Assembly: GCA_020632335.1 (NCBI GenBank)
Contig: JACKFV010000001.1
Coordinates: 598,866-630,865 of the forward strand
Reading direction: 5' to 3'
Source of the DNA: Candidatus Saccharimonadota bacterium
GTDB lineage: Bacteria; Patescibacteriota; Gracilibacteria; UBA4473
Length of the DNA: 32,000 bases
Positions 4,614-32,000 of this stretch are shown here, piece after piece. Under the pieces are notes generated by a model. That model was not told where the DNA came from and searched no databases. It saw only the letters and a list, made by a program, of their open reading frames with translations. Numbering within the stretch: position 1 is the stretch's first letter; every line of letters begins with the position of its first letter. The translations under genes were made by a program, and so were the position numbers.

Positions 4614-5069
4614 CTAGGAGAGTAAGAGGGTATCGGCCTCTGCGTCCAGCAAGCCGCCCAGCTGCGCTATGGCATTAGCGTCTAGTCCGGTGAGGGTACT
4701 GGGGCGTAGCACTACGCCAGACCCAGGGCAGAGCACCGTCACGCTCAGCTTCACGGGGTCATAGTTCCCCATGCCGTCAACGGTAAAGAGCATTTCTTCT
4801 GCTATGGTGAGGTTATCTAGCACGCCGAATGCCTTAGACCGGCCGTCAGTTGCCGCAGGGTCATAGAGGTACACGCAGCCCGCATATTGGGGGTCGCTGA
4901 TGGTGGTATACCGACCGAGCACAGCTCCCCGAGGGATGGGGCCACTGTGGGTAATGGGGACTATCAGCTGGTAGGTCTCGGCCCGGCGGAGGTCTGCAGT
5001 GCTGGACCGCGCCAAGATATTGGGGCTGTGGAGCGTGGTAGCAGCAGTAGCAGTGGGGGAATACGTCAT
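4614..5069 (-). CDS. hypothetical protein, weak resemblance to phage head-decoration (lambda gpD-like) proteins
   Basis: Start taken at ATG 5067-5069 (MTYSPTATAAT...). The segment PRGAVLGRYTTIS...YDPAATDGRSKAFGVLDN...LTGLDANAIAQLGG recalls the RGAVLG...AATDGS...ILAEDVDA pattern of decoration proteins. This comes from memory only. Confidence 0.45.
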   Translation of the reverse strand: MTYSPTATAATTLHSPNILARSSTADLRRAETYQLIVPITHSGPIPRGAVLGRYTTISDPQYAGCVYLYDPAATDGRSKAFGVLDNLTIAEEMLFTVDGMGNYDPVKLSVTVLCPGSGVVLRPSTLTGLDANAIAQLGGLLDAEADTLLLS

Positions 5070-5146
5070 AGCGAGGGGGGTTACGCAGCAGCAGTATAGC
5101 AAAAGTACTTGCGATGCACCGCGCGTGCACTACCCTCTTGGCAGGC

Positions 5147-5221
5147 ATCCCTGTAGTTTAATGGATAAAACGTCCCCCTCCTAAGGGGAAACTCCCGGTT
5201 CGACTCCGGGCGGGGATACCA
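5147..5221 (+). tRNA. tRNA-Arg (anticodon CCT), CCA encoded
   Basis: Hand-folded cloverleaf. Acceptor ATCCCTG/CGGGGAT (one G-T pair). D arm GTTT-AATGGATA-AAAC. Anticodon arm TCCCC-CTCCTAA-GGGGA. T arm CCCGG-TTCGACT-CCGGG. Discriminator A plus CCA. 75 nt. Confidence 0.9.
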
Positions 5222-5222
5222 C

Positions 5223-5251
5223 TTGACTTTATTATCTATCTATTGTATAGA
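5223..5251 (+). promoter_or_regulatory. sigma70-like promoter (TTGACT-17 nt-TATAGA) for the AT-rich islet genes
   Basis: TTGACT at 5223-5228, a 17-nt spacer, TATAGA at 5246-5251. Lies immediately 3' of the tRNA. Confidence 0.5.
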
Positions 5252-5307
5252 CAGTACAGTGTCTTTCGCAGTATCGGCAGTTAACGCATTATTATTGCAG
5301 GAGCGCT

Positions 5308-5330
5308 ATTTTTATTTTATTTTATTATTT
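5308..5330 (+). repeat. (ATTTT)n-type simple repeat in the 5' leader of the 5354 gene
   Basis: Reads ATTTTT ATTTT ATTTT ATT ATTT directly in the sequence. Confidence 0.6.
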
Positions 5331-5353
5331 CATCTAACAACAGTGTTTTATTT

Positions 5354-5836
5354 ATGAAAACAATTATTTTAATTCTCGGCACGCTCTGTGCCCTTCTTTT
5401 TGCTAGTACTACTACAACAGTACTCGCTCAGCAAGATACCGCGTCATCCGTGACCACCGTTTCTACTATTCCACTCCCGGACGGCTCTTCTATCATTACC
5501 CAAAGCAATGATCTTGATTCTCTTATTACTTGGAGAAATATTATTAGGCAGAAGCAACTGGAGATTTTCAGCACGAGTGAAGAAAGAGCCCAAAATCGTA
5601 TCGACTCCCTTGAGGAAGTTATCTTCCTTGCTTATGAGGAAATATCGGTTACATTGAATGAAGGTAAAGAGCAAGGGTACGCACTATCCTATATATTGCT
5701 GGTTTACCATATGGTGGATGCATTTGGTTTTATGGTTTTATCTTTTATTCTGGGAGTTGTTCTCACTTGGGAGGTCTTGCCACAAATCATTAACGATAAA
5801 CCAAAAATCATTAACCATAAACCAAAGAAGGGTTAA
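5354..5836 (+). CDS. exported protein with N-terminal signal peptide and C-terminal TM segment (AT-rich islet)
   Basis: Signal peptide MKTIILILGTLCALLFASTTTTVLA/QQ. Helical middle DLDSLITWRNIIRQKQLEIF. TM FGFMVLSFILGVVLTW. C-terminal tail contains an in-frame tandem repeat. Confidence 0.65.
   Translation: MKTIILILGTLCALLFASTTTTVLAQQDTASSVTTVSTIPLPDGSSIITQSNDLDSLITWRNIIRQKQLEIFSTSEERAQNRIDSLEEVIFLAYEEISVTLNEGKEQGYALSYILLVYHMVDAFGFMVLSFILGVVLTWEVLPQIINDKPKIINHKPKKG
5786..5827 (+). repeat. 21-bp tandem duplication (2 copies, 2 mismatches) inside the 5354..5836 CDS
   Basis: atcattaacgataaaccaaaa / atcattaaccataaaccaaag, encoding IINDKPK/IINHKPK. Confidence 0.9.
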
Positions 5837-5925
5837 GACAAAGGGGCCACCTGTTCCCTTACACATGCAGGATAATTCTTATCACAGGCGTAGTCTTACT
5901 ACTTCTGTGCAGCGCTCATACGCCC

Positions 5926-6201
5926 GTGATGGCTCAGGAGAGCTCTCAGCCTGTCTCCGTTATGACGGAGCGGCAACAGGCAACGGTGGATTCTTTAGAG
6001 AATCTCATCACCATAATGAGAGCTCAGATCGACACTATTGTGTCGGAGAGCGCTGATACAACCACCACGAATGCGGTGGAAAGTACTGATACTGATAAAG
6101 AAAATAGGGGACCAAGTGCTATGTTCTGGTTTGGAACAGTGGTGTTTTTTATACTTTTATTTATTGGTAGTGATTTCTCTAGGTTGTTTAAACCCTACTA
6201 A
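5926..6201 (+). CDS. paralogue of the preceding gene (signal peptide, helical region, C-terminal TM); true 5' end probably upstream near 5865
   Basis: The frame is open from 5821 and encodes ...CRIILITGVVLLLLCSAHTPVMA/QESS, a signal peptide homologous to MKTIILILG...VLA/QQ of the upstream gene. No in-frame ATG, GTG or TTG occurs before 5926. VDSLENLITIMRAQIDTIVSES parallels DLDSLITWRNIIRQKQLEIFSTS. C-terminal TM is FWFGTVVFFILLFIG. Confidence 0.55.
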   Translation: MMAQESSQPVSVMTERQQATVDSLENLITIMRAQIDTIVSESADTTTTNAVESTDTDKENRGPSAMFWFGTVVFFILLFIGSDFSRLFKPY

Positions 6202-6213
6202 CTGCCAAAGACA

Positions 6214-6268
6214 CCCCCCGTTGCGCCTCTACATCTGTTGTAGAGTGTCGTAACGGGGTTATTTTTCG
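6214..6268 (+). terminator. compound hairpin terminator between convergent genes (T-run overlaps the def stop)
   Basis: Outer stem CCCCGTT (6216-6222) / AACGGGG (6252-6258). Inner perfect stem CTCTACA / TGTAGAG. Followed by TTATTTTT. Confidence 0.7.
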
Positions 6269-7457: not shown

Positions 7458-9236
7458 ATGCCCGTAACTGCTCATGTGCTGAACTCCGCAGCGCCCCACA
7501 CCGGCACTAAGGCAAGCGACACCACTGTGTGTAGCTTCCGGACGCATTACCTGCGGGCTGGGCGGCTGCCGCATGCGGATACCCCCGCTCCCATCTGTAG
7601 TGATGTAGGGCCAGCCATACGCGTGCAGCCCTCTGCCTATGCCGTGTGGGTGGAGCGCACCGGGGGGAGTGACAGCTATGGAGGGTTCCACGCGCTGCTA
7701 CAGGTGGGGCCAGACGCCGCCATAGACGTGCCCTATAGCGGTGAGGGAGCGGTGGTGGGGATCATCCGTAATGCGGGGGTGCAGCCCGGGGCCATCACCA
7801 GTAGTGATGGGAGTGCGGAGGCAGCGCTGCAGTTCCTCCCCAACGGCCACACCATGACGGACCAGCAGCTGCGCGCCAGCCTAGCACCAGACTGGCCTGT
7901 GCGCATAGCCGACGTGACCAGCGCTGGGGTGAGTGATGGGCCGCTGGCCATGGGGGTCTTTGCCGGGGGGGTAGACATGCAGGGCAGCAGCATCACGGGG
8001 CTCCTCCCCAGCCCCGCAGACCCCACCGCTGCGGTGAGTAACGCGCAGTTGCAGGGCCTTCTCACCCAGCTGGGCAGCAGTGTGGTGCTTACCCTCACGC
8101 CGAATGGGGGCTGCTTTCCTCATCGGCTGAGCTGGACATCTAGCCTCAGTGGGAGTGGTTTCTTCACCGTATTGCGGAACGGGGTAGCCATCAGCGACCC
8201 CCTGCCCGAGAGCACGCTCAGCTACACCGACTATGACTTTGTCTATGACGAGGTCTTTTATCAGGTGCGGCAGCTCGACACCACCACGGGGCAGATCATC
8301 ACCTCGAATACCGTCGGTATGGTGCCCGAAGACTGCGTGGCGCCGCTAGCGGGTGATTACGGCGACGGGGCTGATGGGGCGCTAGTGCTGAGTAACACCA
8401 CCCACACGCTGCAGCGCGGGCAGGTGTACCGCTACAGCAGTGTGGTGGTGGATGACAGCACGCTGCGGTTTACGGGCAATGGCGGTACGGTGATCTACGT
8501 TGACGGTGACCTGAGTGTGACGGGCAATAGCACGCTGCAGGGTATGCCGGGTATAGACATGCCGCTCATCGAGGTAATGCTCAGTGGTACGGTGTATAGC
8601 CTGCTGGGGGGGCATGGCGCGCATGGCTCTGGGGGGAGTGGGGGAGACGCTACTACTGGCGGCCAGGGGGGGGCTGGTGGGGCTGGCACCGGGAGCTGGG
8701 GCACTGGCCAGGGTGGCGCGGGGGGCTACACTACGGTGAATATGACGGCGGGTGGGCTGCCGGGCTCTGCGGCGAGTATGCTGCAGGCAGGGGGTGGCGG
8801 TGGTGGCGGCGGCGCAGATACCATCGCTACCGGGGGCAAGGGGGGCAATGGCGGCGTGCTGAGCGGGCTGCAGCCGGGGGTATTCTGGCTGGTGCGGGGG
8901 GCCATCACCCTCGACAGCAGCGTCACGATAGACATTGCGGGTGCTACGGGCAGCGGCGGCATCGACGGTAACCCCGGGGGATACAACGCCACGGGGCCCC
9001 GCTATGGGGGTACGGGAGGGGGAGGTGGTGGCGCTGGAGGAGCTGACGGAGCGCACTGGTACTTCTGCAGCGAGGGGGCGCAGACCGTGGGGAGCTACAC
9101 CGCACTCCTCAGCGGAGGGAATGGCGGCCCCGGGGGAGACTCGCTCGGGCAGGCACCAGCGCCGGGGAGCGCCGGCACCAGTGGTACTGCGGGGGCAGCG
9201 GGCTCAGCGGGGGCAGTGCAGTTCATCGCCCTGTAG
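7458..9236 (+). CDS. tail-fibre-like protein with glycine-rich C-terminal half
   Basis: No signal peptide. The motif GSSITGLLPSPADPTAAVSNAQLQGL resembles the I-x-N-L-x-x-P-x-x-x-x-D-A-V-N-K-x-Y element of phage fibres. An FN3/Ig-like segment is present (LSWTSS...FYQVRQLD). GDYGDGADGALVLSNTTHTL starts a beta-helix-like segment. Residues ~384-588 are GGxGG-type glycine-rich repeats. Confidence 0.6.
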   Translation: MPVTAHVLNSAAPHTGTKASDTTVCSFRTHYLRAGRLPHADTPAPICSDVGPAIRVQPSAYAVWVERTGGSDSYGGFHALLQVGPDAAIDVPYSGEGAVVGIIRNAGVQPGAITSSDGSAEAALQFLPNGHTMTDQQLRASLAPDWPVRIADVTSAGVSDGPLAMGVFAGGVDMQGSSITGLLPSPADPTAAVSNAQLQGLLTQLGSSVVLTLTPNGGCFPHRLSWTSSLSGSGFFTVLRNGVAISDPLPESTLSYTDYDFVYDEVFYQVRQLDTTTGQIITSNTVGMVPEDCVAPLAGDYGDGADGALVLSNTTHTLQRGQVYRYSSVVVDDSTLRFTGNGGTVIYVDGDLSVTGNSTLQGMPGIDMPLIEVMLSGTVYSLLGGHGAHGSGGSGGDATTGGQGGAGGAGTGSWGTGQGGAGGYTTVNMTAGGLPGSAASMLQAGGGGGGGGADTIATGGKGGNGGVLSGLQPGVFWLVRGAITLDSSVTIDIAGATGSGGIDGNPGGYNATGPRYGGTGGGGGGAGGADGAHWYFCSEGAQTVGSYTALLSGGNGGPGGDSLGQAPAPGSAGTSGTAGAAGSAGAVQFIAL

Positions 9237-17485: not shown

Positions 17486-18400
17486 TTAGGAAGAGAAATA
17501 TGCCGTTACTCGGTCCCAGAGGGTCTCTGGCTCTTTATTCGCCTCTGCTGACTGCTCTGCGGTGGTGGCTACTACGGGCTTCTTATACTCGGGGAAGTCC
17601 CGCCGTGGGGTGCCGTCTTCGTCATAGAGGCTGGGGTAGCGGTCACGCATCATGGCCGAGTAACTGGCCCGCGTGATGCCGTTTTCCTCACTATACTGTG
17701 CCCAGAGCCGGTTGTTCTCGTACGCGCTGCCACCCTTGGGGTAGATCACCTCGTGCATGCCTCGCCGCCCAGCGCTGGAGGCCGCCACCACGGCATAGAG
17801 GTCTCCGGGGGTCTCATACCCTCCTTTGGGCATGTGCAGATGCCAGTACTGCTCTACGTAGTCCAGTTGCTCCACGGGCCCCAGTGCTCGTAGCGCCTCT
17901 GGGGTGATCTGCAGCTCCTTCGCGGCGGCCTTGCCTATCTGGATATAGCCGTAGTAGCCGCCATTATTCCCGATGTCATGCCGCATCGTCCCCGCCGTTT
18001 CTATATGGAAGGTATGCAGCACCCACTCCTCCGGCACGCCAATACTCGCTGCTACGCTGGCTACCTTGGCCTGTACCTCAGGGCTGGCTATGGCATGCCA
18101 GGTCTTCACCACATCCCCGTTGAACTTCGCCTTGGCGATTTTCTCAAATACTCTCCCTCCTATGTGCTCCCCTTTACGGATATCCTGGCACTCCTGCTCT
18201 ATCTGCTCTTGCGTGTAGCCCTCCTCCACCAGCTCCGCCGTCACGGTATTGTACGTCTCTTCCCCCAGCAGTTTCTTGAAGAAAAAATCTGTCAGGACTT
18301 CTTGCAGGTAGTTCGTCAGCGCACTCGGTCGCTCTACTGCTGCAGCAGGCGCCTCCTCGTGAGAAGCAATAGCCAGTGATTCCGGTACATTATCAGTCAT
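17486..18400 (-). CDS. lytic transglycosylase / lysozyme-like (SLT-type) domain protein, no signal peptide
   Basis: Start taken at ATG 18398-18400 (MTDNVPES...), 10 nt after the upstream stop. SLT-like catalytic region FHIETAGTMRHDIGNNGGYYGYIQIGKAAAKEL (E-S/T ... G-L/Y-x-Q). The C-terminus is ETLWDRVTAYFSS. Confidence 0.6.
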   Translation of the reverse strand: MTDNVPESLAIASHEEAPAAAVERPSALTNYLQEVLTDFFFKKLLGEETYNTVTAELVEEGYTQEQIEQECQDIRKGEHIGGRVFEKIAKAKFNGDVVKTWHAIASPEVQAKVASVAASIGVPEEWVLHTFHIETAGTMRHDIGNNGGYYGYIQIGKAAAKELQITPEALRALGPVEQLDYVEQYWHLHMPKGGYETPGDLYAVVAASSAGRRGMHEVIYPKGGSAYENNRLWAQYSEENGITRASYSAMMRDRYPSLYDEDGTPRRDFPEYKKPVVATTAEQSAEANKEPETLWDRVTAYFSS

Positions 18401-18410
18401 AGAGAGGAGA

Positions 18411-19511
18411 TTAAGAAGCAAACCAAGAAGACACCCGTTCGAGGAAACCCTCAGCCGTGGCAGCATCAGCGGCTTGCTGTGCCGCCTGCTGCTCTCGCTC
18501 TCGGGCAGCTGCTTGCTCCCGGCGCTCCCCCAGGGTGTACATGTAGGGCGTCGGGTCTATGTGCTGGTTCCGCTTACTGCTTGTCCGCTGTGAGACATCA
18601 TCTACCAGAAAGAAGCGGAAGTCCAGATGCGCCCCAGTACTCCGGCCGGTATTCCCCAGCGTCCCCAAGACCGTCATGGTGTCTACCCGGTCTCCTGCCC
18701 GCAGCTCTGGGGTTATTTTATCCAGATGCGAGTAGTACGCGGTGACGTACTGGGCGCTCTCCTGCCCATTCTCGTCAGTACAGCGCGAGACGCAGTAGCG
18801 CACCTTCACGCAGTTGCCCGCACCGCCTGGCTGAGAGAATACTTGTTCCACCAGCCCTGGCCCCATGGCGACAATAGGGTAGCCCTCCTTCCCCGCTTCC
18901 ACCGCAAAATCCATCCCCTCATGGAAGTCATGCCCTCCAAATACTGTACGATTCCCATAGCCCGAGGTAGTGCGGATACCATGCTCCTGTCGATTCTCCT
19001 TAATAGGATTCCGCTCCAGGGGCTGCATATCCATATCCATAATGGGAATAAACCAGCCATCTAGCGGCACCACTGGCAACTCCAGTGACTGCTCCGTGAG
19101 CTCCTTCTGGCTCATGGGCAGGGTGTTGAGGCGCTGCGAGGCACTGGTATTCGTCATCTGCTGCAGCACTTCCTTCCCGCAAGTCTTATAGACCTCCATA
19201 GCCTGCGTCGGGCTCATCTGCTGCACATACTGCTGCACAGAGGGATTGGCGCCCTCCGTAGCAGATACCCAGCCCAGTTTCTCCAGCACTGCTTGCATCA
19301 GCATCCCTGCCCAGTTCTCTCGCACCCACTCCGTAACCCCCTGCTCTGTACGATCCCCCCCATCATAGTAGGCATCGCCAGGCCGCTCCAGACCATCTCG
19401 AGGAGCTCCCATCCCTGCCGCGAGCACCTCAGCCATAGTGGGCTCTGAGGGCATATCTGGCGTATCGGTATTACGATGAGAGAAGGATTCTATCCCCATA
19501 AGAGAGCGCAT
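18411..19511 (-). CDS. M23-family peptidase domain protein, no signal peptide
   Basis: HEGMDF (HxxxD), YYSHLD and GNTGRSTGAHLDFRF (variant of the GxTGxSTGPHLHFE block). One of the few genes here with an SD-like AAGGAG upstream of the ATG. The C-terminus is EGFLERVSSWFAS. Confidence 0.75.
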   Translation of the reverse strand: MRSLMGIESFSHRNTDTPDMPSEPTMAEVLAAGMGAPRDGLERPGDAYYDGGDRTEQGVTEWVRENWAGMLMQAVLEKLGWVSATEGANPSVQQYVQQMSPTQAMEVYKTCGKEVLQQMTNTSASQRLNTLPMSQKELTEQSLELPVVPLDGWFIPIMDMDMQPLERNPIKENRQEHGIRTTSGYGNRTVFGGHDFHEGMDFAVEAGKEGYPIVAMGPGLVEQVFSQPGGAGNCVKVRYCVSRCTDENGQESAQYVTAYYSHLDKITPELRAGDRVDTMTVLGTLGNTGRSTGAHLDFRFFLVDDVSQRTSSKRNQHIDPTPYMYTLGERREQAAAREREQQAAQQAADAATAEGFLERVSSWFAS

Positions 19512-24597: not shown

Positions 24598-26013
24598 ATG
24601 AACAAAGCAATTATTTTGGCAGCCCTCGCGCTGCTCTTTTGCGGTACTACCGCCTGGGCACAAACCAAAGCCAGCTGCCCCTACACAGCAGAGTCCGAGG
24701 TGGCGCTGAAGAAACACTGGAGTCCTGCAGAACAAGACTCTCTTCGGAAGCTTATTCTGGAGAATACTCCACCAGCGCAACTACCGAGTAACCCACGGGT
24801 AGAGCTCTACTCCATAGAGCTCGACACAACCAGTTCTGGGCAACAAATTATAGGTAGTATTACCTACAACATTACTTTCTCTGTGAAGGGAAAATCGGGA
24901 AAAAAGGGTGTACGTCCTTGCTCGGTGATGACCATCACAGAAGCAGGAGGCGTAGCAACGGTTATGGGCATTGAGCCCTACCGTGAGCAAGTGGACGGGA
25001 AAGACACGAGCATGCAGGACCCTATAGTGGACGCTGCTCCTCCGCCACCACCACCGGTAGACAGTATCAAGCTCGACCTCGAGCAGATGCTGAACGGCAG
25101 AGTAAAGCTCCACTACGAAGATACCTGGATAAATCGTGATACCACCCTGGTATGGCAAGAACTAGAGGCTGCCAATGCTTATGCTGCTGCTAATGCGGCT
25201 TACCAAGCTGATTCAGCACGGTACTACCGCCAAGTCCAGGCATACCAGGACTCCCTCAGGAGGGACTCTCTCGGGAGAGCTACTGATGGGAGGGTATACT
25301 GGTACACCCTAGGAGGAGCACTCCTCTACCAGGAGAGCTCGTCTTTAGGCGAAGGCTATGGTATGCACCTCTCTGTTTTTCGGAATGACATCGCTTTTAG
25401 TTTCTCAGGAAGGTACTTTCAGCACCAATTCCACAGCAGCCAGCTGTCGGTTATCGGGCAGGATACTACCTATCTTATCCAACACACGTTCGATGAGATA
25501 GGCATGCCCTACGACTCGGTATACATCGACGAAATCCGTGATGTATACCAACGAGAAGATCTGCACGCGAGAGCCCACTTTATTCCCATTAACCTGGGGA
25601 TAGAATGGAAGCCATTTTTTGGCATTTATCGGAAGATATTTGCTGAAAAATTTGACGAGACTATGGGCCTGGGAGGTATGCTGCCCCTCGGCAAGCGCTT
25701 TGGCATTGTGCCAGAGTTTACCGTGGGGGCTGAGGTTCAGGCGCTCTTGCACCTGGGGCCCTCAGCGGCGAAAGACCCGTTTTCGGTCTACGTCAGCGGA
25801 GCCATCACCACCGGCGGGGGCTTCACCCTCCATCACCGCAAGGGCTGGTATATTGGCCTGCATGCCCGGAATCCTGTCAAAACCTGGGGGACGGAGAAAC
25901 CCGTCCAGATCAGGGTCCAGACCTCCGACGAGGCAACCCACACGGAGCAGTACTTTGGGCAGAAGGAATTCTACCAACGGGCAATGCTTACCCTGGGCTG
26001 GCGGATACGATAA
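24598..26013 (+). CDS. exported protein, possible outer-membrane beta-barrel in the C-terminal half
   Basis: Signal peptide MNKAIILAALALLFCGTTAWA/QT. Proline linker AAPPPPPPVDS. The C-terminal half has alternating-pattern strands (YWYTLGGALLYQ, YGMHLSVFRNDIAFSFSGRYF) and ends MLTLGWRIR. GC content is lower than the backbone. Confidence 0.6.
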   Translation: MNKAIILAALALLFCGTTAWAQTKASCPYTAESEVALKKHWSPAEQDSLRKLILENTPPAQLPSNPRVELYSIELDTTSSGQQIIGSITYNITFSVKGKSGKKGVRPCSVMTITEAGGVATVMGIEPYREQVDGKDTSMQDPIVDAAPPPPPPVDSIKLDLEQMLNGRVKLHYEDTWINRDTTLVWQELEAANAYAAANAAYQADSARYYRQVQAYQDSLRRDSLGRATDGRVYWYTLGGALLYQESSSLGEGYGMHLSVFRNDIAFSFSGRYFQHQFHSSQLSVIGQDTTYLIQHTFDEIGMPYDSVYIDEIRDVYQREDLHARAHFIPINLGIEWKPFFGIYRKIFAEKFDETMGLGGMLPLGKRFGIVPEFTVGAEVQALLHLGPSAAKDPFSVYVSGAITTGGGFTLHHRKGWYIGLHARNPVKTWGTEKPVQIRVQTSDEATHTEQYFGQKEFYQRAMLTLGWRIR

Positions 26014-26396: not shown

Positions 26397-26425
26397 AATA
26401 AAACCCCCCCCACGGCGGAGGGGGT
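26397..26425 (-). terminator. rho-independent terminator closing the tail-fibre-like operon
   Basis: The minus strand reads CCCCCTCcgccgtGGGGGGG followed by TTTTATTG. It lies 24 nt downstream of the stop at 26449. Confidence 0.6.
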
Positions 26426-26448
26426 CTTCTCCAGCTGGCTCTACCCTA

Positions 26449-26634
26449 CTAGAGTGCAGAGAGCATCTCCTTAACCCTGGCGATGAGAAACTCGCGCATG
26501 CTAGTCCTGGTGCGGTAGCGGCCGATGATATCCTTAAACGCTACGCCGCGCCAGTGCAGGTACGCTCGCAGCAGGGCCATAGCCTCGGGCTTGGTCTTGA
26601 GGTAGTCGCGGGCGGGGGTGTCAGTGGAGGTCAT
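26449..26634 (-). CDS. small basic protein (61 aa), last gene of the fibre operon
   Basis: It fills the gap between the fibre-gene stop (26659) and the terminator and is preceded by a 24-nt C/T-only tract. The sequence LLRAYLHWRGVAFKDIIGRYRTRTSMREFLIARVKEML is helical and basic. No family recognised. Confidence 0.5.
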   Translation of the reverse strand: MTSTDTPARDYLKTKPEAMALLRAYLHWRGVAFKDIIGRYRTRTSMREFLIARVKEMLSAL

Positions 26635-26658
26635 GAGAGAGGAGAAAAAGAGAAGTTA

Positions 26659-28350
26659 CTAGCGCAGTTGCTCGGCCAGGTGCTGCACCGCACGGAGGGT
26701 GAGCGTCCAGAGCTGGGGGTAGTCTACAGCGAGTGTCGTCCCATCAGCAGAGCGCTTCACGGCCTCGGGCAGCACTGCTTGTTCGTCCTCGGCCATCACT
26801 CCATAGTGCGCTCGGGGGGTAGCGTCGGGCTCATAGGCCTTCTCCCAGTAGTAGCGCTGCACGGGCAGTTGTAGCACCTTCTCCAGCGCCTGCTTGCCGC
26901 TTAGGGGCTCTGCATCACGCTTGCGCACACTGTGGGAGGGGGTCAGGTAAGCGCTGGCCAGCACGTTGCCGCCGGCTACCTCTATCTTCTCGCTGGGGGT
27001 GGAGGTGTCTACCCCTAGGCGATAGTTCCCCAGCCCCAGCACATTGGCCTGGCTGTAGGTGGTGGGCACGTCCCCGAGGGCAAAGACATTCGGCGCGGTG
27101 ACGGTCTGGTCTATCCCCATGGCCACGCTATAGTCACTGCTGACGGTATTTCGCAGCCCCATAGCCACGGCCTGGCTCCCCGCAGCAGTGCAGTCCTGCC
27201 CCTGCGCTAAGGACTGTGGCCCACTGGCCGTACAGCCATTCCCCAGCGCTACGGCCTGCTGGTGACTGGCGGTATTATTCACCCCTTGCGCCAAGGACTG
27301 GTCACCACTGGCGGTGGTGCCATTCCCCCCGGCTAGTGCCTGGGGCCCGCTAGCGACGGTGTCCTTCCCCAGGGCGATGGCCTGGTCTCCCCCAGCGGTG
27401 CACTGGTTCCCCATAGCTAAAGACTGCGCTCCGCTACTGCTGGCCTGGTAGCCATGCGCGAGCGACTGGTCACCGCCCGCCGTGCTGCCATTCCCCAGCG
27501 CTACTGACTGCGCCCCAGTGGCATAGGTGCCATACCCATGGGTGAGCGACTCATTGCCCTGAGCGTTGGTGGCGTTGCCGTAGGCCGTACTGCTGGCTCC
27601 ACTGGCGGTGAGGTTGGTGCCTATGGCGGTAGCATTCCACCCCGTGGCCAGGGAGCCGCTCCCCACCGCGCTGGTGCTGGCCCCCATGGCCACCGCTCGC
27701 ATACCCGCAGCGCTGCTCAGCTGCCCCGTGGCAAAAGCCCCCACACCGCTGGCCACGCACTGCTGTCCACTGCTGAGGCTGTAGCTGCCGCTGGCGGTGG
27801 TGTCCTTCCCACAGGCAAAGGAGTGGGATCCCACATTGGGGGCATTCCACTGCGCGGCGGAGACTTCTCCGGCTCGGAGGGCTCTCTTGGAGGGATCCCA
27901 CGCAAAGACCGTCCCCGCGTCACTCCGAACGGTGAGGGGGCTGTCGGCGCCATTTTCGCTCAGCAGGCCGCCCCCTGCCGTACCGCCCGTGCCCACATGC
28001 AGCGCCACCAGCGGGCTGAGCACCCCCACCCCTACCGCGCCATTATGCGCTATGCTGCCGGAGTAGTCCGCAGGGGTATGCGGGTAGCCGCTATTACCCG
28101 CGGGGCTGCCGGCTTGCTTCCAGTCTTGGTCTTCCGCGCGGGTGAAGATCAGCCAGCCCTCGGCGTTATACCAGCTATAGGTGCCGTCGCCGTTGGAGAG
28201 GTACTTCCCGCTATTGACGTCCCAGGTTACGGTGGAGCCATCAGCGTTCTCGGCCGTGTAGCTGCCGTCATCATTATCCCGCACCTCGGCCCCCTGCTGG
28301 AGGAGCGTAAGCGAGACATCTGCCGGAGGGCGGTGGTCAGTGTGGGGCAT
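26659..28350 (-). CDS. tail-fibre-like protein: YadA/Hep_Hag-type 14-residue repeats plus C-terminal peptidase-S74 intramolecular chaperone domain
   Basis: Neck motif NGAVGVGVLSPLVALHVGTGG. Residues ~175-425 are about 18 degenerate repeats of the S-x-A-x-G-x-x-[ST]-x-A-S-G type. The C-terminal part TPSHSVRKRDAEPLSGKQALEKVLQLPVQRYYW...HYGVMAEDEQAVLPEAV...VDYPQLWTLTLRAVQHLAEQL matches the endosialidase-type chaperone domain, with Ser472 and Lys477 spaced as in the Ser-Lys dyad. Confidence 0.75.
   Translation of the reverse strand: MPHTDHRPPADVSLTLLQQGAEVRDNDDGSYTAENADGSTVTWDVNSGKYLSNGDGTYSWYNAEGWLIFTRAEDQDWKQAGSPAGNSGYPHTPADYSGSIAHNGAVGVGVLSPLVALHVGTGGTAGGGLLSENGADSPLTVRSDAGTVFAWDPSKRALRAGEVSAAQWNAPNVGSHSFACGKDTTASGSYSLSSGQQCVASGVGAFATGQLSSAAGMRAVAMGASTSAVGSGSLATGWNATAIGTNLTASGASSTAYGNATNAQGNESLTHGYGTYATGAQSVALGNGSTAGGDQSLAHGYQASSSGAQSLAMGNQCTAGGDQAIALGKDTVASGPQALAGGNGTTASGDQSLAQGVNNTASHQQAVALGNGCTASGPQSLAQGQDCTAAGSQAVAMGLRNTVSSDYSVAMGIDQTVTAPNVFALGDVPTTYSQANVLGLGNYRLGVDTSTPSEKIEVAGGNVLASAYLTPSHSVRKRDAEPLSGKQALEKVLQLPVQRYYWEKAYEPDATPRAHYGVMAEDEQAVLPEAVKRSADGTTLAVDYPQLWTLTLRAVQHLAEQLR
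27076..27828 (-). repeat. in-frame 42-bp-period coding repeats (Hep_Hag-like) inside the fibre gene
   Basis: Examples are GAQSVALGNGSTAG, GDQSLAHGYQASSS, GAQSLAMGNQCTAG, GDQAIALGKDTVAS, GPQALAGGNGTTAS and GDQSLAQGVNNTAS. Confidence 0.8.
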
Positions 28351-28370
28351 AGGAGGGAGGGTAAGAGAGA

Positions 28371-28556
28371 CTAGAACGGGAGCGTGGTGCGCTGCTCTAG
28401 TGCGGTGCTGAGCTGGCGTAGCAGGTCTCCGGCCTCTACCGTCAGCAGGGTGTAGAGGCGGTCTTGCAGCGCGAATTGCTCCTCCAGCGAGAGGGAATCC
28501 TCAGCGGTGATGGCCTGTTCGAGCGTCTGCAGAGCGGTAATAAAGGGAGTGATCAT
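28371..28556 (-). CDS. small acidic helical protein (61 aa) in the fibre operon
   Basis: It exactly fills the gap between the genes at 28562 and 28350. The N-terminus MITPFITALQTLEQ echoes the N-terminus of the upstream 459-aa protein. Confidence 0.5.
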   Translation of the reverse strand: MITPFITALQTLEQAITAEDSLSLEEQFALQDRLYTLLTVEAGDLLRQLSTALEQRTTLPF

Positions 28557-28561
28557 AGGGG

Positions 28562-29941
28562 TTAGATAAAGGAAGACGTGAAGCTATCTCGTGCTTTGCC
28601 GGTGTTATTCGCCGTGAGGGTCTGTGCATGGGGGCCCAGGCCATAGCAGCCCGAGACGCTGTAGTCCCCCGCACGGAGGATAAACCCCGCACTGGTCGTC
28701 ACCTGCAGGGCGCTGGTGTTGCCATACTGCTGCTGCGAGCTCCCGCTCAGCACGGCGTAGTAGACCTGCCCGGTGGTCATGCCCGTGATGGTCAGCGCAC
28801 TGCGATCCGCCACCTGGCTATAGGCTAGTGGCCTGAGGCTACAGTCTGTTGCGCGGAGGATACCGCCGCTCATCACCTGCACGCCGTAGTGGGCGAGGTC
28901 TGCGCGGATATGCAGCACCGAGCCGTAACTCCCATAGTGGCTATAGTAGAGGCGTGGGCTGGAGTCCAGCAGTTGCACCCGGGCTAAGTCTTGCACGCTG
29001 CTGTAGTAGAGGCGTGGGCTGGAGCTACCGCTGAGGACCACCTCCCCCTGCCCCCCCACCGTGCTGTAGTAGAGCAGCGCTGCGCCACTGGTGTCGCTCG
29101 CGCATCGTCCACGGCCGAGCAAACTCATGCCCTGGAGCGTCAGCGTGCCGGTGCCCGTGTGGGAGAGAAGGCTCTGCCCCTGCAGGCTGCTACTGCGGAG
29201 AAGGAGCGCCCCGGTGCGCACGCTCACACTGCTCTGCTCGCCCAGGGTGCTGTACTGCACTGTCAGCTGGCCGTTACTCGTGGCGGTCAGCATCGCCCCG
29301 GCAGAGATCACCGTGTGCTCTACCCGGGGGCTGAGCTGCCCCGTGAGCACTACCCGAGCGTTGGTCGTCACCTCCACCGCGGTGAACTGCCCGCCCTGCA
29401 CGCTACTGAGCAGACACTGGGCCTGACTGGTTATCTGCACCTCATAGAAAGAAGCGGTGCAGTTGCGGGTATCTAGCAGCGCGCCATCACGCACGCTCAC
29501 CCGGTGGTAGGCCCCGGCGGTGCCCTGGTCTGCGTACCAGCGGGCGCCGGCCACCACGCACTCGGTATAGCGGCTGTCCCCCCAGGGGAAGGCATCTACC
29601 TCATCTCCCACTGCGCCGGAGGCAGCATTGCCCCGGTCATCTCGTAGCGCAGTCAGGCGGTTGCTGGTCAGGTCATAGCTGCCCTGCCAGGGCGTGGTAC
29701 TGTGGGCCGTCAGCACGGTGGCCTCGGGGCCCATGGTGCTCTCGGTCAGGGCTCGCATACCTATAAGCGACAGCCCGGGCGTCCCGCGGGCGTAGTCCGT
29801 CACCCAGTACTGGCAGCCAGGGGTGAGCGCTCCTTGGTCTCGTAGCGAGAGGACCTCCGCCCATGGCAGTGCATGTGAGGCCATGGTGCAGGGCTCCAGA
29901 GCAGCGGTAGTGGTAATGAAAGGGGTGTATTGCAGGCTCAT
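28562..29941 (-). CDS. beta-helix-like repeat protein (tail-spike/fibre-like)
   Basis: 459 aa with no signal peptide. After residue ~150 there are ~20-residue turns of similar pattern (ARVVLTGQLSPRVEHTVISAGAMLTATSNGQLTVQYSTLGEQSSVSVRTGALLLRSSSLQG...). SPRLYYS occurs twice, 20 aa apart. Confidence 0.55.
   Translation of the reverse strand: MSLQYTPFITTTAALEPCTMASHALPWAEVLSLRDQGALTPGCQYWVTDYARGTPGLSLIGMRALTESTMGPEATVLTAHSTTPWQGSYDLTSNRLTALRDDRGNAASGAVGDEVDAFPWGDSRYTECVVAGARWYADQGTAGAYHRVSVRDGALLDTRNCTASFYEVQITSQAQCLLSSVQGGQFTAVEVTTNARVVLTGQLSPRVEHTVISAGAMLTATSNGQLTVQYSTLGEQSSVSVRTGALLLRSSSLQGQSLLSHTGTGTLTLQGMSLLGRGRCASDTSGAALLYYSTVGGQGEVVLSGSSSPRLYYSSVQDLARVQLLDSSPRLYYSHYGSYGSVLHIRADLAHYGVQVMSGGILRATDCSLRPLAYSQVADRSALTITGMTTGQVYYAVLSGSSQQQYGNTSALQVTTSAGFILRAGDYSVSGCYGLGPHAQTLTANNTGKARDSFTSSFI
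28941..29024 (-). repeat. 24-bp direct repeat (1 mismatch) 60 bp apart inside the beta-helix gene
   Basis: ct[a/g]tagtagaggcgtgggctggag occurs at 28941-28964 and 29001-29024. Both copies encode SSPRLYYS. Confidence 0.85.
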
Positions 29942-29953
29942 GAGGGGAGGGGA

Positions 29954-31609
29954 TTACCGAGGAGATACCGCCCCAATGACGTAGTGCACGCTGAGGGTCA
30001 GCGCGTTATCCCCCTGGGGTGGGGTGGGGCTCTCTCGGCGGCTCAGTGCGCGGAATGCCGCTATCTCTTCTCCATAGAGGATGATCTCCGTCCAGCGGCC
30101 GGCCTCATGCCCGGTGCTGGCGGTGGCGTCGTTATACGGGGTGAAGGCTGGCAGTTGCACCCCATCTGCTGTGTAGTTCATGCTGTGGTCTATGAGCATC
30201 TGTGCCTCGGCTACGCTCTCGCTTACGTTGGGGTCGGTGGTGTCGCCCTTGGCCCGGAGCAGCAGGTCCTTGGCGGGCCGCACCTGCACATGCGCATGGC
30301 TGCAGTGGTAGCCCGGTGGCGGGGTGAGCGCGCTGGGGGTGAGGGCATCTACCACGGCGACCTCATAGCTCACCGTGCGGGTCTCGGTATCGGGCAGGGT
30401 GTCGGTCAGCAGTGGCGCGCTGCTCAGCGGTATCATCTGCCCCGTGCTGCGGTTCTCCCACTGCTCGTACACCAGCACGCCGCTAGTGGTCATGGCCTGG
30501 GCATAGCGCAGCAGGTCACCGATGCGGTATTCGGGCGTATTGGCCGTGGTGGCTCCTCCTGCCCAGTAGTAGCGATCCTCTGTAGTGGTGATAAGCCCAC
30601 TGCCGGTACCACAGGGCTGCACGATGTACTGCGGGGTATAGGGCGTGAGGCCGTCCAGCAGGGTGTCGGTCACGGTGAGGGGGCTCCCGTTCTCCACCAC
30701 CAGGTGCCGGAGGAAGGGCGTGCGCAGGCCAGTGGCGGGGTCACTATCACACAGTGGGAGGACGCTATAGTGCTGCTCTGCAGTGCCGCAGGGGGCGAGG
30801 TCTGCCATGCTGGGCGCCGCGGAGAGCACCGCTCCGGTGGTGACGTTGTACCACACCCGGCTCATCAGCGTGCCATCGGTGGTACTCCAGAAGCTCAGTA
30901 GCTGCACCGTCTCCCCCATGGCGTAGCCCGTGCCACTGGCGATGGCGGTATAGCACTCGGTGGTGGGGGCTGACTGCGTGATGTCCTCCGTGAAGAGCGT
31001 GGTGGTGGCGGTCTGGTCTGCACCGGTGATGGGGTCTGTGTAAGTGATGCTGAGCGTGCCAGAGACCTCGTCGTACACGGCCTCCCGCAAGATGCTATTG
31101 CCGTTCTGGTCATACCCCAGGGCAAAGGCGTAGTCGGTCTGTGGGGTGGGGGCTGGGGGTACTTCGCTCAGCGGCATGGCGCTCAGGCCGGTGGTGATGC
31201 CCTCCTCGTCACTTACCTGCGCGTGAAATGTCGTGGCGGAGAGTGCCCGCAGCTGCACCTGGGTGAGGGAGGCCACGTTCACCGTACAGAGCTCACTGAG
31301 GGTCACCCCATAGCTCACCCAGAGCGCGTCTGGGTTTGGCGTCACGTAGTGCGTCCCGCTGAGGCTGGGTACCGTCTGGTACTGGTTTACGCCGCTGGGG
31401 TCTACCTGCTGGTAGGGGTAGTTGCTCACCAGTACCTCCACGCTGCCGGTGGGGGCTTGCAGGCTCAGCATATTCAGCGCCTGTACGTCTAAGATGCACT
31501 GCTCGCCCGTGGCCATCTCTACCCAGTAGTTGTCCCTCCCGCTACGAGCAAAAGCCCCGGGGTGATCTGCAGAGCTGAGTGGCCGACGCTGGTGGTAGAG
31601 GTCAAACAT
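29954..31609 (-). CDS. first gene of the fibre operon; large modular protein of unknown family
   Basis: 551 aa with no signal peptide. It has recurring modules with W/Y-x-N-x-x-T-G-like turns (WYNVTTGAVLSAAP, WENRSTGQMIPLSSAP, YTDPITGADQTAT). Two modules end in PCGT. A 12-nt C/T-only junction links it to the next gene. Confidence 0.55.
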   Translation of the reverse strand: MFDLYHQRRPLSSADHPGAFARSGRDNYWVEMATGEQCILDVQALNMLSLQAPTGSVEVLVSNYPYQQVDPSGVNQYQTVPSLSGTHYVTPNPDALWVSYGVTLSELCTVNVASLTQVQLRALSATTFHAQVSDEEGITTGLSAMPLSEVPPAPTPQTDYAFALGYDQNGNSILREAVYDEVSGTLSITYTDPITGADQTATTTLFTEDITQSAPTTECYTAIASGTGYAMGETVQLLSFWSTTDGTLMSRVWYNVTTGAVLSAAPSMADLAPCGTAEQHYSVLPLCDSDPATGLRTPFLRHLVVENGSPLTVTDTLLDGLTPYTPQYIVQPCGTGSGLITTTEDRYYWAGGATTANTPEYRIGDLLRYAQAMTTSGVLVYEQWENRSTGQMIPLSSAPLLTDTLPDTETRTVSYEVAVVDALTPSALTPPPGYHCSHAHVQVRPAKDLLLRAKGDTTDPNVSESVAEAQMLIDHSMNYTADGVQLPAFTPYNDATASTGHEAGRWTEIILYGEEIAAFRALSRRESPTPPQGDNALTLSVHYVIGAVSPR

Positions 31610-31720
31610 GCGGGGAGGAAAACGCCTGCAGTATACCGTGCCGGAGCGCGCGCCTTGCCTATCCCCATCAGTATCCTCCTCCTACCACCATGCCCCGCGG
31701 GAGCGTTTGAGAGAAAAAAG

Positions 31721-31748
31721 TTGACAGCCCTGTGGTAACTACTACCTT
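31721..31748 (+). promoter_or_regulatory. candidate promoter (TTGACA-16 nt-TACCTT) divergent from the fibre operon
   Basis: TTGACA at 31721-31726 and TACCTT at 31743-31748. If real, it excludes the GTG start at 31732. Confidence 0.35.
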
Positions 31749-31812: not shown

Positions 31813-31947
31813 ATGCACTATGTATTACAGTCCTCTTTTTTCTCTCTGGAGGGTTTGCTAGACAAAAGTGTGCTGAGTGCTAGGCTCATGGGGTGGTTCC
31901 TTTGTGTGTTCTTTGCTGCTCTATTTTCTGTACTCTTCTGCCTATGA
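31813..31947 (+). CDS. small hydrophobic peptide (44 aa from ATG 31813; 71 aa if GTG 31732 is used)
   Basis: T-rich, low-GC ORF with a C-terminal TM, LMGWFLCVFFAALFSVLFCL. Its stop overlaps the next ATG (ATGA at 31944-31947). Coding status is uncertain. Confidence 0.3.
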   Translation: MHYVLQSSFFSLEGLLDKSVLSARLMGWFLCVFFAALFSVLFCL

Positions 31948-32000
31948 ACCGTTCCTCCCGCGCCGCCACCGAGATGCTTCTCATCGTCAGCATGCTGGCC
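31944..32000 (+). CDS. 5' end of a membrane protein (runs off the window)
   Basis: Own translation: MNRSSRAATEMLLIVSMLA. It has a charged N-terminus followed by a hydrophobic helix. GC content returns to the backbone level. Confidence 0.35.
   Translation, partial: MNRSSRAATEMLLIVSMLA

Follow-up and report, generated by a model that had tools for sequence, protein, structure and literature searches.

The DNA analyzed here (32,000 nucleotides, referred to throughout as the window) comprises positions 598,866 to 630,865 of contig JACKFV010000001.1, and its host is a member of the Candidate Phyla Radiation (CPR), Candidatus Peribacteria. Close to the right end of the window is an operon of five open reading frames (ORFs), all on the minus strand and spanning coordinates 26449–31609, which an earlier reading of the sequence (the original prediction) had described as a self-contained unit coding for tail-fibre-like proteins. 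In order of transcription these are g1 (29954–31609), coding for a modular protein of 551 aa that is identical to the hypothetical protein with locus tag H6771_02950 on a contig of 630,865 bp; g2 (28562–29941), coding for a 459 aa spike/fibre protein of an uncatalogued phage family; g3 (28371–28556), whose 61 aa product is acidic and helical with an isoelectric point (pI) of 4.1; g4 (26659–28350), coding for a 563 aa fibre; and g5 (26449–26634), whose 61 aa product is basic and helical (pI 10.3) and is without a family match. The intergenic gaps from g1 to g5 are 12, 5, 20 and 24 nt; an alternative start for g2 at Met20 in a database gene call would give a product of 440 aa and a first gap of 69 nt.

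The operon is closed by a GC-rich terminator-like hairpin, CCCCCTCCGCCGTGGGGGGG, followed by TTTTATT (26404–26424, minus strand), 25 nt past the stop codon of g5, which was identified from the sequence and from a terminator scan that reported 6 terminator-like sites in the region compared with 2.1 expected. At the other end g1 is preceded by a non-coding leader of ~120 nt (31610–31731, no strand assigned) in which no sigma-70-like promoter was found, followed by a stretch of 34% GC and then divergent plus-strand ORFs to the window edge. The operon starts 391 nt from the window end, and those 391 nt constitute the entire upstream view. No signal peptide was found in any of the five operon proteins, none of the N-termini being hydrophobic or signal-like by inspection, and none contains a lipobox. 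The operon has the appearance of a single transcription unit that carries its own terminator. The layout given in the original prediction holds up well, including five packed minus-strand ORFs with coordinates and gaps (12/5/20/24 nt) exactly as claimed, a terminator of its own, ~120 bp of DNA without coding before the operon, 61 aa proteins at the third and fifth positions that are acidic helical and basic respectively, and no signal-like N-terminus among the five products.

The g4 product consists of a repetitive shaft followed by a C-terminal chaperone domain. Residues 177–442 (27025–27822, minus strand) form 19 in-register YadA_head/Hep_Hag-like units of 14 residues, with self-identity values of 0.35 and 0.39 at offsets of 14 and 28, respectively, and a corresponding 42-nt periodic repeat in the DNA; Pfam YadA_head matches in seven stretches (E-value 3.9e-23), and against the PDB the repeats match the heads of the trimeric autotransporters BpaC (1.7e-20) and YadA (5e-8). 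The C-terminal segment (aa 472–563; 26662–26937, minus strand) is a Peptidase_S74/MYRF-type intramolecular chaperone domain, with a match to Pfam Peptidase_S74 (PF13884) at aa 477–532 (3e-9, 37.5 bits compared with a cut-off of 22) and a Ser472/Lys477 dyad (S472-HSVR-K477) at the start of the match, in which K477 aligns to profile position 6; a weak and remote PDB match is to the MYRF ICA domain 7dc3 (4e-3). The N-terminal 160 residues contain DG-x-Y/W repeats and a GVGV...LHVGTGG neck and match nothing, and the N-terminus itself (MPHTDHRPPADV...) is not signal-like. Among phage proteins, g4 matches a PHROG family of long tail fiber distal subunits; tblastn aligns its C-terminus with proteins of Vibrio and Thermus phages annotated as long-tail-fibre distal subunits, and its repeats are linked through PHROGs and tblastn to tail spikes and tail fibres from phages of Flavobacterium, Acinetobacter and Verrucomicrobia. 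Viral contigs contain no close relative of g4. Pfam and NCBIfam scans did not find a YadA-type anchor family in g4, and the NCBIfam trimeric autotransporter models score far under their cut-offs. Because it has neither an autotransporter anchor nor a signal peptide, g4 is a phage-type self-chaperoned fibre and not a YadA-class adhesin; its cleavage is predicted.

The g2 product has no match in Pfam, PHROGs or NCBIfam, and in a word-indexed homologue search g1 and g2 each found only themselves; the same type of search with a g2 family profile returned three proteins only. An exhaustive HMMER search with g2, by comparison, recovered 160 cluster representatives, of which 92 reach E≤1e-10; E-values go as low as 3e-34, and none of the representatives exceeds ~34% identity. 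Designed 'Pizza' propellers from the PDB also matched the family profile and were set aside as artefacts of repeat composition. Across 60 sequences the family is defined by an N-terminal beta-sandwich domain of ~105 residues (aa 24–128 in g2; 29558–29872, minus strand) with invariant Y45, W85, D101, N105 and W120, which begins 14 to 470 residues into the various relatives. After it come a beta-rich, variable body and a short conserved C-terminal motif, and g2 aligns with the family from end to end, including this motif. In g2 the body is a predicted beta-solenoid with a period of ~21 residues (aa 129–425; 28667–29557, minus strand). An AlphaFold model built from the 60-sequence alignment (predicted local distance difference test score, pLDDT, 83.7; predicted template modelling score 0.82) has a small beta-sandwich and a regular solenoid of ~14 coils, with regular strand triplets at aa 125–425; a model without the alignment had a pLDDT of 35 and was of no use. 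Foldseek with the g2 model placed two viral proteins clearly first (1.8e-9 and 7.5e-7), one of them of the same length as gp20 of Streptomyces phage Xkcd426, with weak matches to tailspikes, adhesins/autotransporter passengers and polysaccharide lyases. By profile and modelled fold, g2 belongs to an unnamed phage family that lies outside the curated libraries (Pfam, PHROG, NCBIfam). Phage receptor-binding proteins classically pair a conserved N-terminus with a distal body that varies, and we infer that aa 24–128 form the particle-attachment domain and aa 129–425 the receptor-binding part.

All eight g2 relatives with readable surroundings lie in phage genomes. In a 52.8 kb IMG/VR contig (L002) the g2-like gene has terminase, portal and protease genes upstream and sheath and baseplate hub genes downstream; in a second, of 43 kb (L003), the major head protein gene is upstream. 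Two Saprospiraceae metagenome-assembled genomes (MAGs) have an endolysin and a phage exonuclease just downstream (L004) and an amidase downstream (L006), and in a 28 kb Logan contig (L007) the g2-like gene is surrounded by an SU10-type portal and an adaptor. In a Planktomarina MAG (L005, 3576–5618) it is located between the large terminase and portal genes, an unusual place for a fibre/spike gene, and in the cultured Streptomyces phage Xkcd426 the relative, gp20, is placed between the major capsid and major tail proteins; L008 is a short contig without annotation. The varying position of the g2-like gene among phage genomes suggests a movable cassette. Neither g1 nor g2 has a tblastn match in GenBank phages, and neither alignment A4 nor the closest relative, P0003, has a match in viral contigs.

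The neighbors of the g2-like genes also have counterparts in the operon. The g1 protein contains two PCGT motifs, at aa 273 and 332, and a search with it of 921 ORFs found the ORF directly upstream of the L003 g2-like gene (E 2.9e-5); the reverse search from that ORF placed g1 at the top of 415 window ORFs (E 7.7e-9), with alignment to g1 modules at aa 217–273 and 359–456. A two-sequence profile then picks the ORF directly upstream of the L002 g2-like gene (E 2.3e-3), and the g1 C-terminal domain is also homologous to the ORF upstream of the g2-like gene in L003/L002. These matches make g1 a homologue of the gene that precedes the g2-like gene in both of these phage contigs, L003 and L002; viral contigs have no close g1 relatives. 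Small acidic helical ORFs of 54–90 aa are located directly downstream of the g2-like genes in L002, L003, L004 and L007, and longer ones in L005 and L006, such that in six phage loci the downstream ORF resembles g3 in size, charge and position. Genes upstream of the g2-like genes in L004 (8068–9673) and L007 (8233–9996) share a different feature, a cysteine-bounded module of ~53 residues (C-x-T/D...DG...Y...G...C-P/G) present once or twice per protein, with profile E-values reaching 1e-39 and 4e-21; the two phage loci are unrelated, and the module is apparently one associated with phage fibres that has so far gone unrecognised. An equation of this module with the PCGT modules of g1 was dropped, as the module profile has no match to g1. 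At the level of individual proteins the descriptions in the original prediction are largely borne out: g1 is modular with PCGT-ending modules at aa 273 and 332; g2, called beta-helix-like, is a beta-solenoid in the alignment-based model, with viral proteins coming first in the structural check; and g4, said to carry about 18 Hep_Hag/YadA-like repeats, has 19 units matching YadA_head (3.9e-23) together with the S74-type chaperone (3e-9) and its Ser472-x4-Lys477 dyad.

The operon can be divided into a spike cassette, g1-g2-g3, and a second part made up of the self-chaperoned fibre g4 and the small basic g5. Because the g2 relatives are in phages, with a g1-like upstream partner and g3-like ORFs downstream, we interpret the operon as phage virion hardware, and specifically the five genes as the fibre/spike (host-recognition) module of a tailed phage in the Peribacteria chromosome, either the end of a prophage or an intact-looking remnant. 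We assign this a probability of roughly 60%, a prophage or remnant being the best explanation because all of the relatives are in a phage context and because of the base rate of prophage fragments. Given that none of the five has an export signal, the proteins would be made in the cytoplasm; g4 would trimerise guided by its S74 domain, which would then cleave itself off after Ser472, while the conserved N-domain of g2 would dock on the particle or on g1, leaving its variable solenoid to face a surface glycan or protein. The g1 product could be an adaptor or a second binding protein, and g3 a small assembly helper by analogy with its positional counterparts in phages. The absence of export signals fits cytoplasmic assembly onto a particle and argues against a bacterial surface adhesin, and nothing points to a new host-owned adhesion system. 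Of the original prediction's account of the operon, the phage fibre/spike-like nature of the products stands, as shown for g4 by its YadA-like repeats and S74 domain and for g2 by its beta-solenoid, and so does the single transcription unit.

Several observations weigh against a prophage origin or qualify the comparison with phages. Within the window the operon has no neighboring capsid, portal, terminase, tail, integrase or lysis gene; the 26 kb downstream are free of capsid, portal, terminase, tail and integrase genes, and the upstream view is limited to 391 nt. The claim in the original prediction that the window lacks phage body genes therefore holds for the downstream side, but upstream only that short segment is seen, and a weak match to the lambda head-decoration protein D (gpD) is present far downstream at 4614–5102. 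Directly upstream of g1 the DNA is non-coding for 120 nt and then AT-rich, with divergent ORFs beyond, while the phage contigs have their g1-like gene directly behind other structural genes. A direct-repeat search found no att-like repeat bracketing the operon, in agreement with the original prediction, and the only tRNA gene in the window, a tRNA-Arg, is 21 kb from it. The G+C content at third codon positions (GC3) of the operon is 0.77–0.82 and its correlation with host genes in relative synonymous codon usage (RSCU) 0.95, so that neither measure distinguishes it from host core genes. The five ORFs are moreover all intact and closely packed, within a CPR genome of small size; these properties fit host maintenance equally with a well-adapted temperate phage. 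A profile of the acidic downstream ORFs ranks g3 second among the 415 window ORFs, at E 2.2, such that its likeness to them is positional only, and the phage loci bearing g2-like genes have nothing that corresponds to g4 or g5.

A decaying prophage fragment without present function, in which the body genes have been deleted and the fibre genes are still free of lesions, is an alternative that we regard as unlikely. The phage ancestry that it presupposes is well supported, and it agrees with the absence of neighboring phage genes from the window, with the divergent gene upstream, and with the operon being a singleton, its proteins having no close relatives among 5.8 billion. Against decay, the five ORFs are all intact, their compact spacing and the terminator have been kept, g2 aligns end to end with its family through the C-terminal motif, the g4 dyad is retained, and small CPR genomes would be expected to purge dead DNA fast.

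It is rather improbable that the operon is a domesticated accessory locus, supplying fibres in trans to a particle encoded in unlinked clusters elsewhere in the manner of a gene transfer agent (GTA) or tailocin. There is precedent in the GTA of Rhodobacter capsulatus, whose head-spike and tail-fibre loci are unlinked from the main particle cluster, although we know of no GTA in CPR bacteria. In favor of such a locus, the operon is equipped with a separate leader and terminator, has host genes on the side that can be seen, codon usage equal to that of the host and intact ORFs, and is not flanked by att repeats; moreover, the g2-like genes adjoin head genes in L002, L003 and Xkcd426, recalling head spikes. 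The gpD-like ORF would provide a second isolated phage-structural match, 21 kb off among housekeeping genes, but this match is under the curated threshold, no particle genes are seen in the window, and there are no relatives through which conservation could be demonstrated. A variant in which Peribacteria captured a phage host-recognition cassette and kept it as a host-regulated operon, serving either a particle with dispersed loci or an attachment device against the host cell, is similarly doubtful; domestication is kept alive at low probability by three features, namely divergent genes upstream, codon usage like that of the host and five intact ORFs. The step taken in the original prediction from the absence of particle genes in the window to a domesticated system is unsupported, with only 391 nt visible upstream and the g2 relatives all in phages. 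Finally, a cell-surface adhesion apparatus of the bacterium itself, with fibres exported to bind a host cell, is very improbable: CPR bacteria do depend on attachment to host cells, YadA-head repeats such as those of g4 are typical of bacterial adhesins and a PilT-type ATPase gene is present in the window, but the five proteins have no signal peptide or lipobox, the operon was found to contain neither a YadA membrane anchor nor a sortase signal or secretion gene, g4 ends in an S74 chaperone rather than an anchor, and the relatives of g1 and g2 are all phage genes.

The rest of the window is ordinary chromosome, with genes for peptide deformylase, DnaG primase, the PilT-type ATPase, superoxide dismutase, YidC, an M23 peptidase, UvrA, a nitroreductase, a protein with an RNA recognition motif (RRM) and ogt, the last of these coding for an ogt-type DNA-binding protein and located directly downstream of the operon terminator. 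The visible flanks are thus host genes (ogt, RRM protein, nitroreductase, UvrA), and the original prediction had correctly named ogt on that side. A metagenome scan with UvrA yielded 80 loci at only 53–56% identity, with no neighbors in common with the window, and neither a genome scan with g1 nor a look-up of a divergent ORF of 71 aa produced a syntenic relative. On the other flank, the ORF at 31947–32000 (plus strand, start MNRSSRAATEMLLIVSMLA...) is divergent from the operon and leaves the window; its hydrophobic N-terminus suggests a membrane protein, as had been proposed, or is faintly pilin-like.

A few other ORFs in the window are of note. The gpD-like ORF (4614–5102, minus strand, 162 aa) has a sub-threshold likeness to the lambda protein, with a match to Pfam HDPD at E 1.1e-4 and 22.7 bits compared with a cut-off of 29.1, and to PHROG head-decoration families at E 5e-3. 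It is isolated among housekeeping genes, next to tRNA-Arg(CCT) (5147–5221, plus strand) and near a stretch of 45% GC with membrane or signal-peptide ORFs (5200–6250), and the ORF may represent a second fragment of phage origin. An ORF of 592 aa (7458–9236, plus strand), located between the genes for deformylase and DnaG, has an FN3-like middle, a 'GDYGDGADGALVL' motif and a long tail rich in glycine (GGxGG), and its G+C content at second codon positions is as high as that of the fibre genes. Pfam, PHROG, NCBIfam and tblastn against phages all gave no match for this ORF; a signal peptide is not obvious in it, and it may be another fibre-like or surface protein. A 326 aa ORF (17486–18466, minus strand) matches PHROGs for phage peptidase and baseplate-hub lytic domains (5.6e-17) and overlaps or abuts the M23 peptidase gene (18411–19511, minus strand); both have a GC3 of 0.66–0.68, below that of their neighbors, and they are probably host cell-wall hydrolases. 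The 471 aa ORF at 24598–26013 (plus strand), between the RRM gene and ogt and separated from the operon only by the latter, codes for a protein with a signal peptide but no family match and no relative in the metagenome scan, and its GC3 (0.59) and RSCU correlation (0.55) are unlike those of the remainder of the window.

A cluster of phage fibre genes in a bacterial chromosome is an ordinary kind of object, albeit here in an unusual, CPR, host. To our knowledge, CPR phages and their targets on these tiny episymbiotic cells are almost unknown, and an intact fibre/spike module in a Peribacteria chromosome provides concrete receptor-binding proteins to study. Notable besides the CPR host is the uncatalogued g1-g2-g3 cassette that it exposes and, with it, a phage spike family of ~160 clusters that has no entry in the family databases and in which an N-terminal docking domain is conserved and two partner genes recur; knowledge of docking domains underlies fibre-gene swapping and host-range prediction. 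If the host does maintain the unit, it would be a new case of domestication of phage parts in a minimal-genome lineage, and the first involving a phage fibre in CPR.

Among known systems, the unlinked fibre loci of the R. capsulatus GTA are comparable in that phage-type fibre genes likewise form their own transcription unit among host genes, but the likeness is by resemblance only, there being no particle cluster in evidence here. The trimeric autotransporter adhesins (YadA, BpaC, UspA1) have the head-repeat beta-roll in common with g4, from which they differ in having a signal peptide and a C-terminal YadA anchor barrel in the place occupied by the S74 domain. S74 phage fibres and tailspikes of the K1F endosialidase and T5 L-shaped fibre type are also comparable, in that g4 likewise has an S74 domain above the cut-off with the Ser-x4-Lys pair, a repetitive beta-structured shaft before it and no export signal. 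A shaft of YadA-head-type 14-residue units is less usual in phages but does occur, and autoproteolysis of g4 is predicted. For g2 the corresponding system is the family of Xkcd426 gp20 (AMD42761, annotated as 'hypothetical protein'), also exemplified by the g2-like genes of IMG/VR contigs 3300002056_000004 and 3300027325_000007. The phage genes are only 25–34% identical to g2, belong to a family without a Pfam, PHROG or NCBIfam model, and adjoin head, tail or lysis genes, which the operon cassette does not within the visible DNA. Nonetheless, L003 and L002 also have the g1-like partner upstream, the L-series loci have a small acidic ORF downstream, and g2 shares with gp20 and its family the same N-domain, beta-solenoid body and C-terminal motif.

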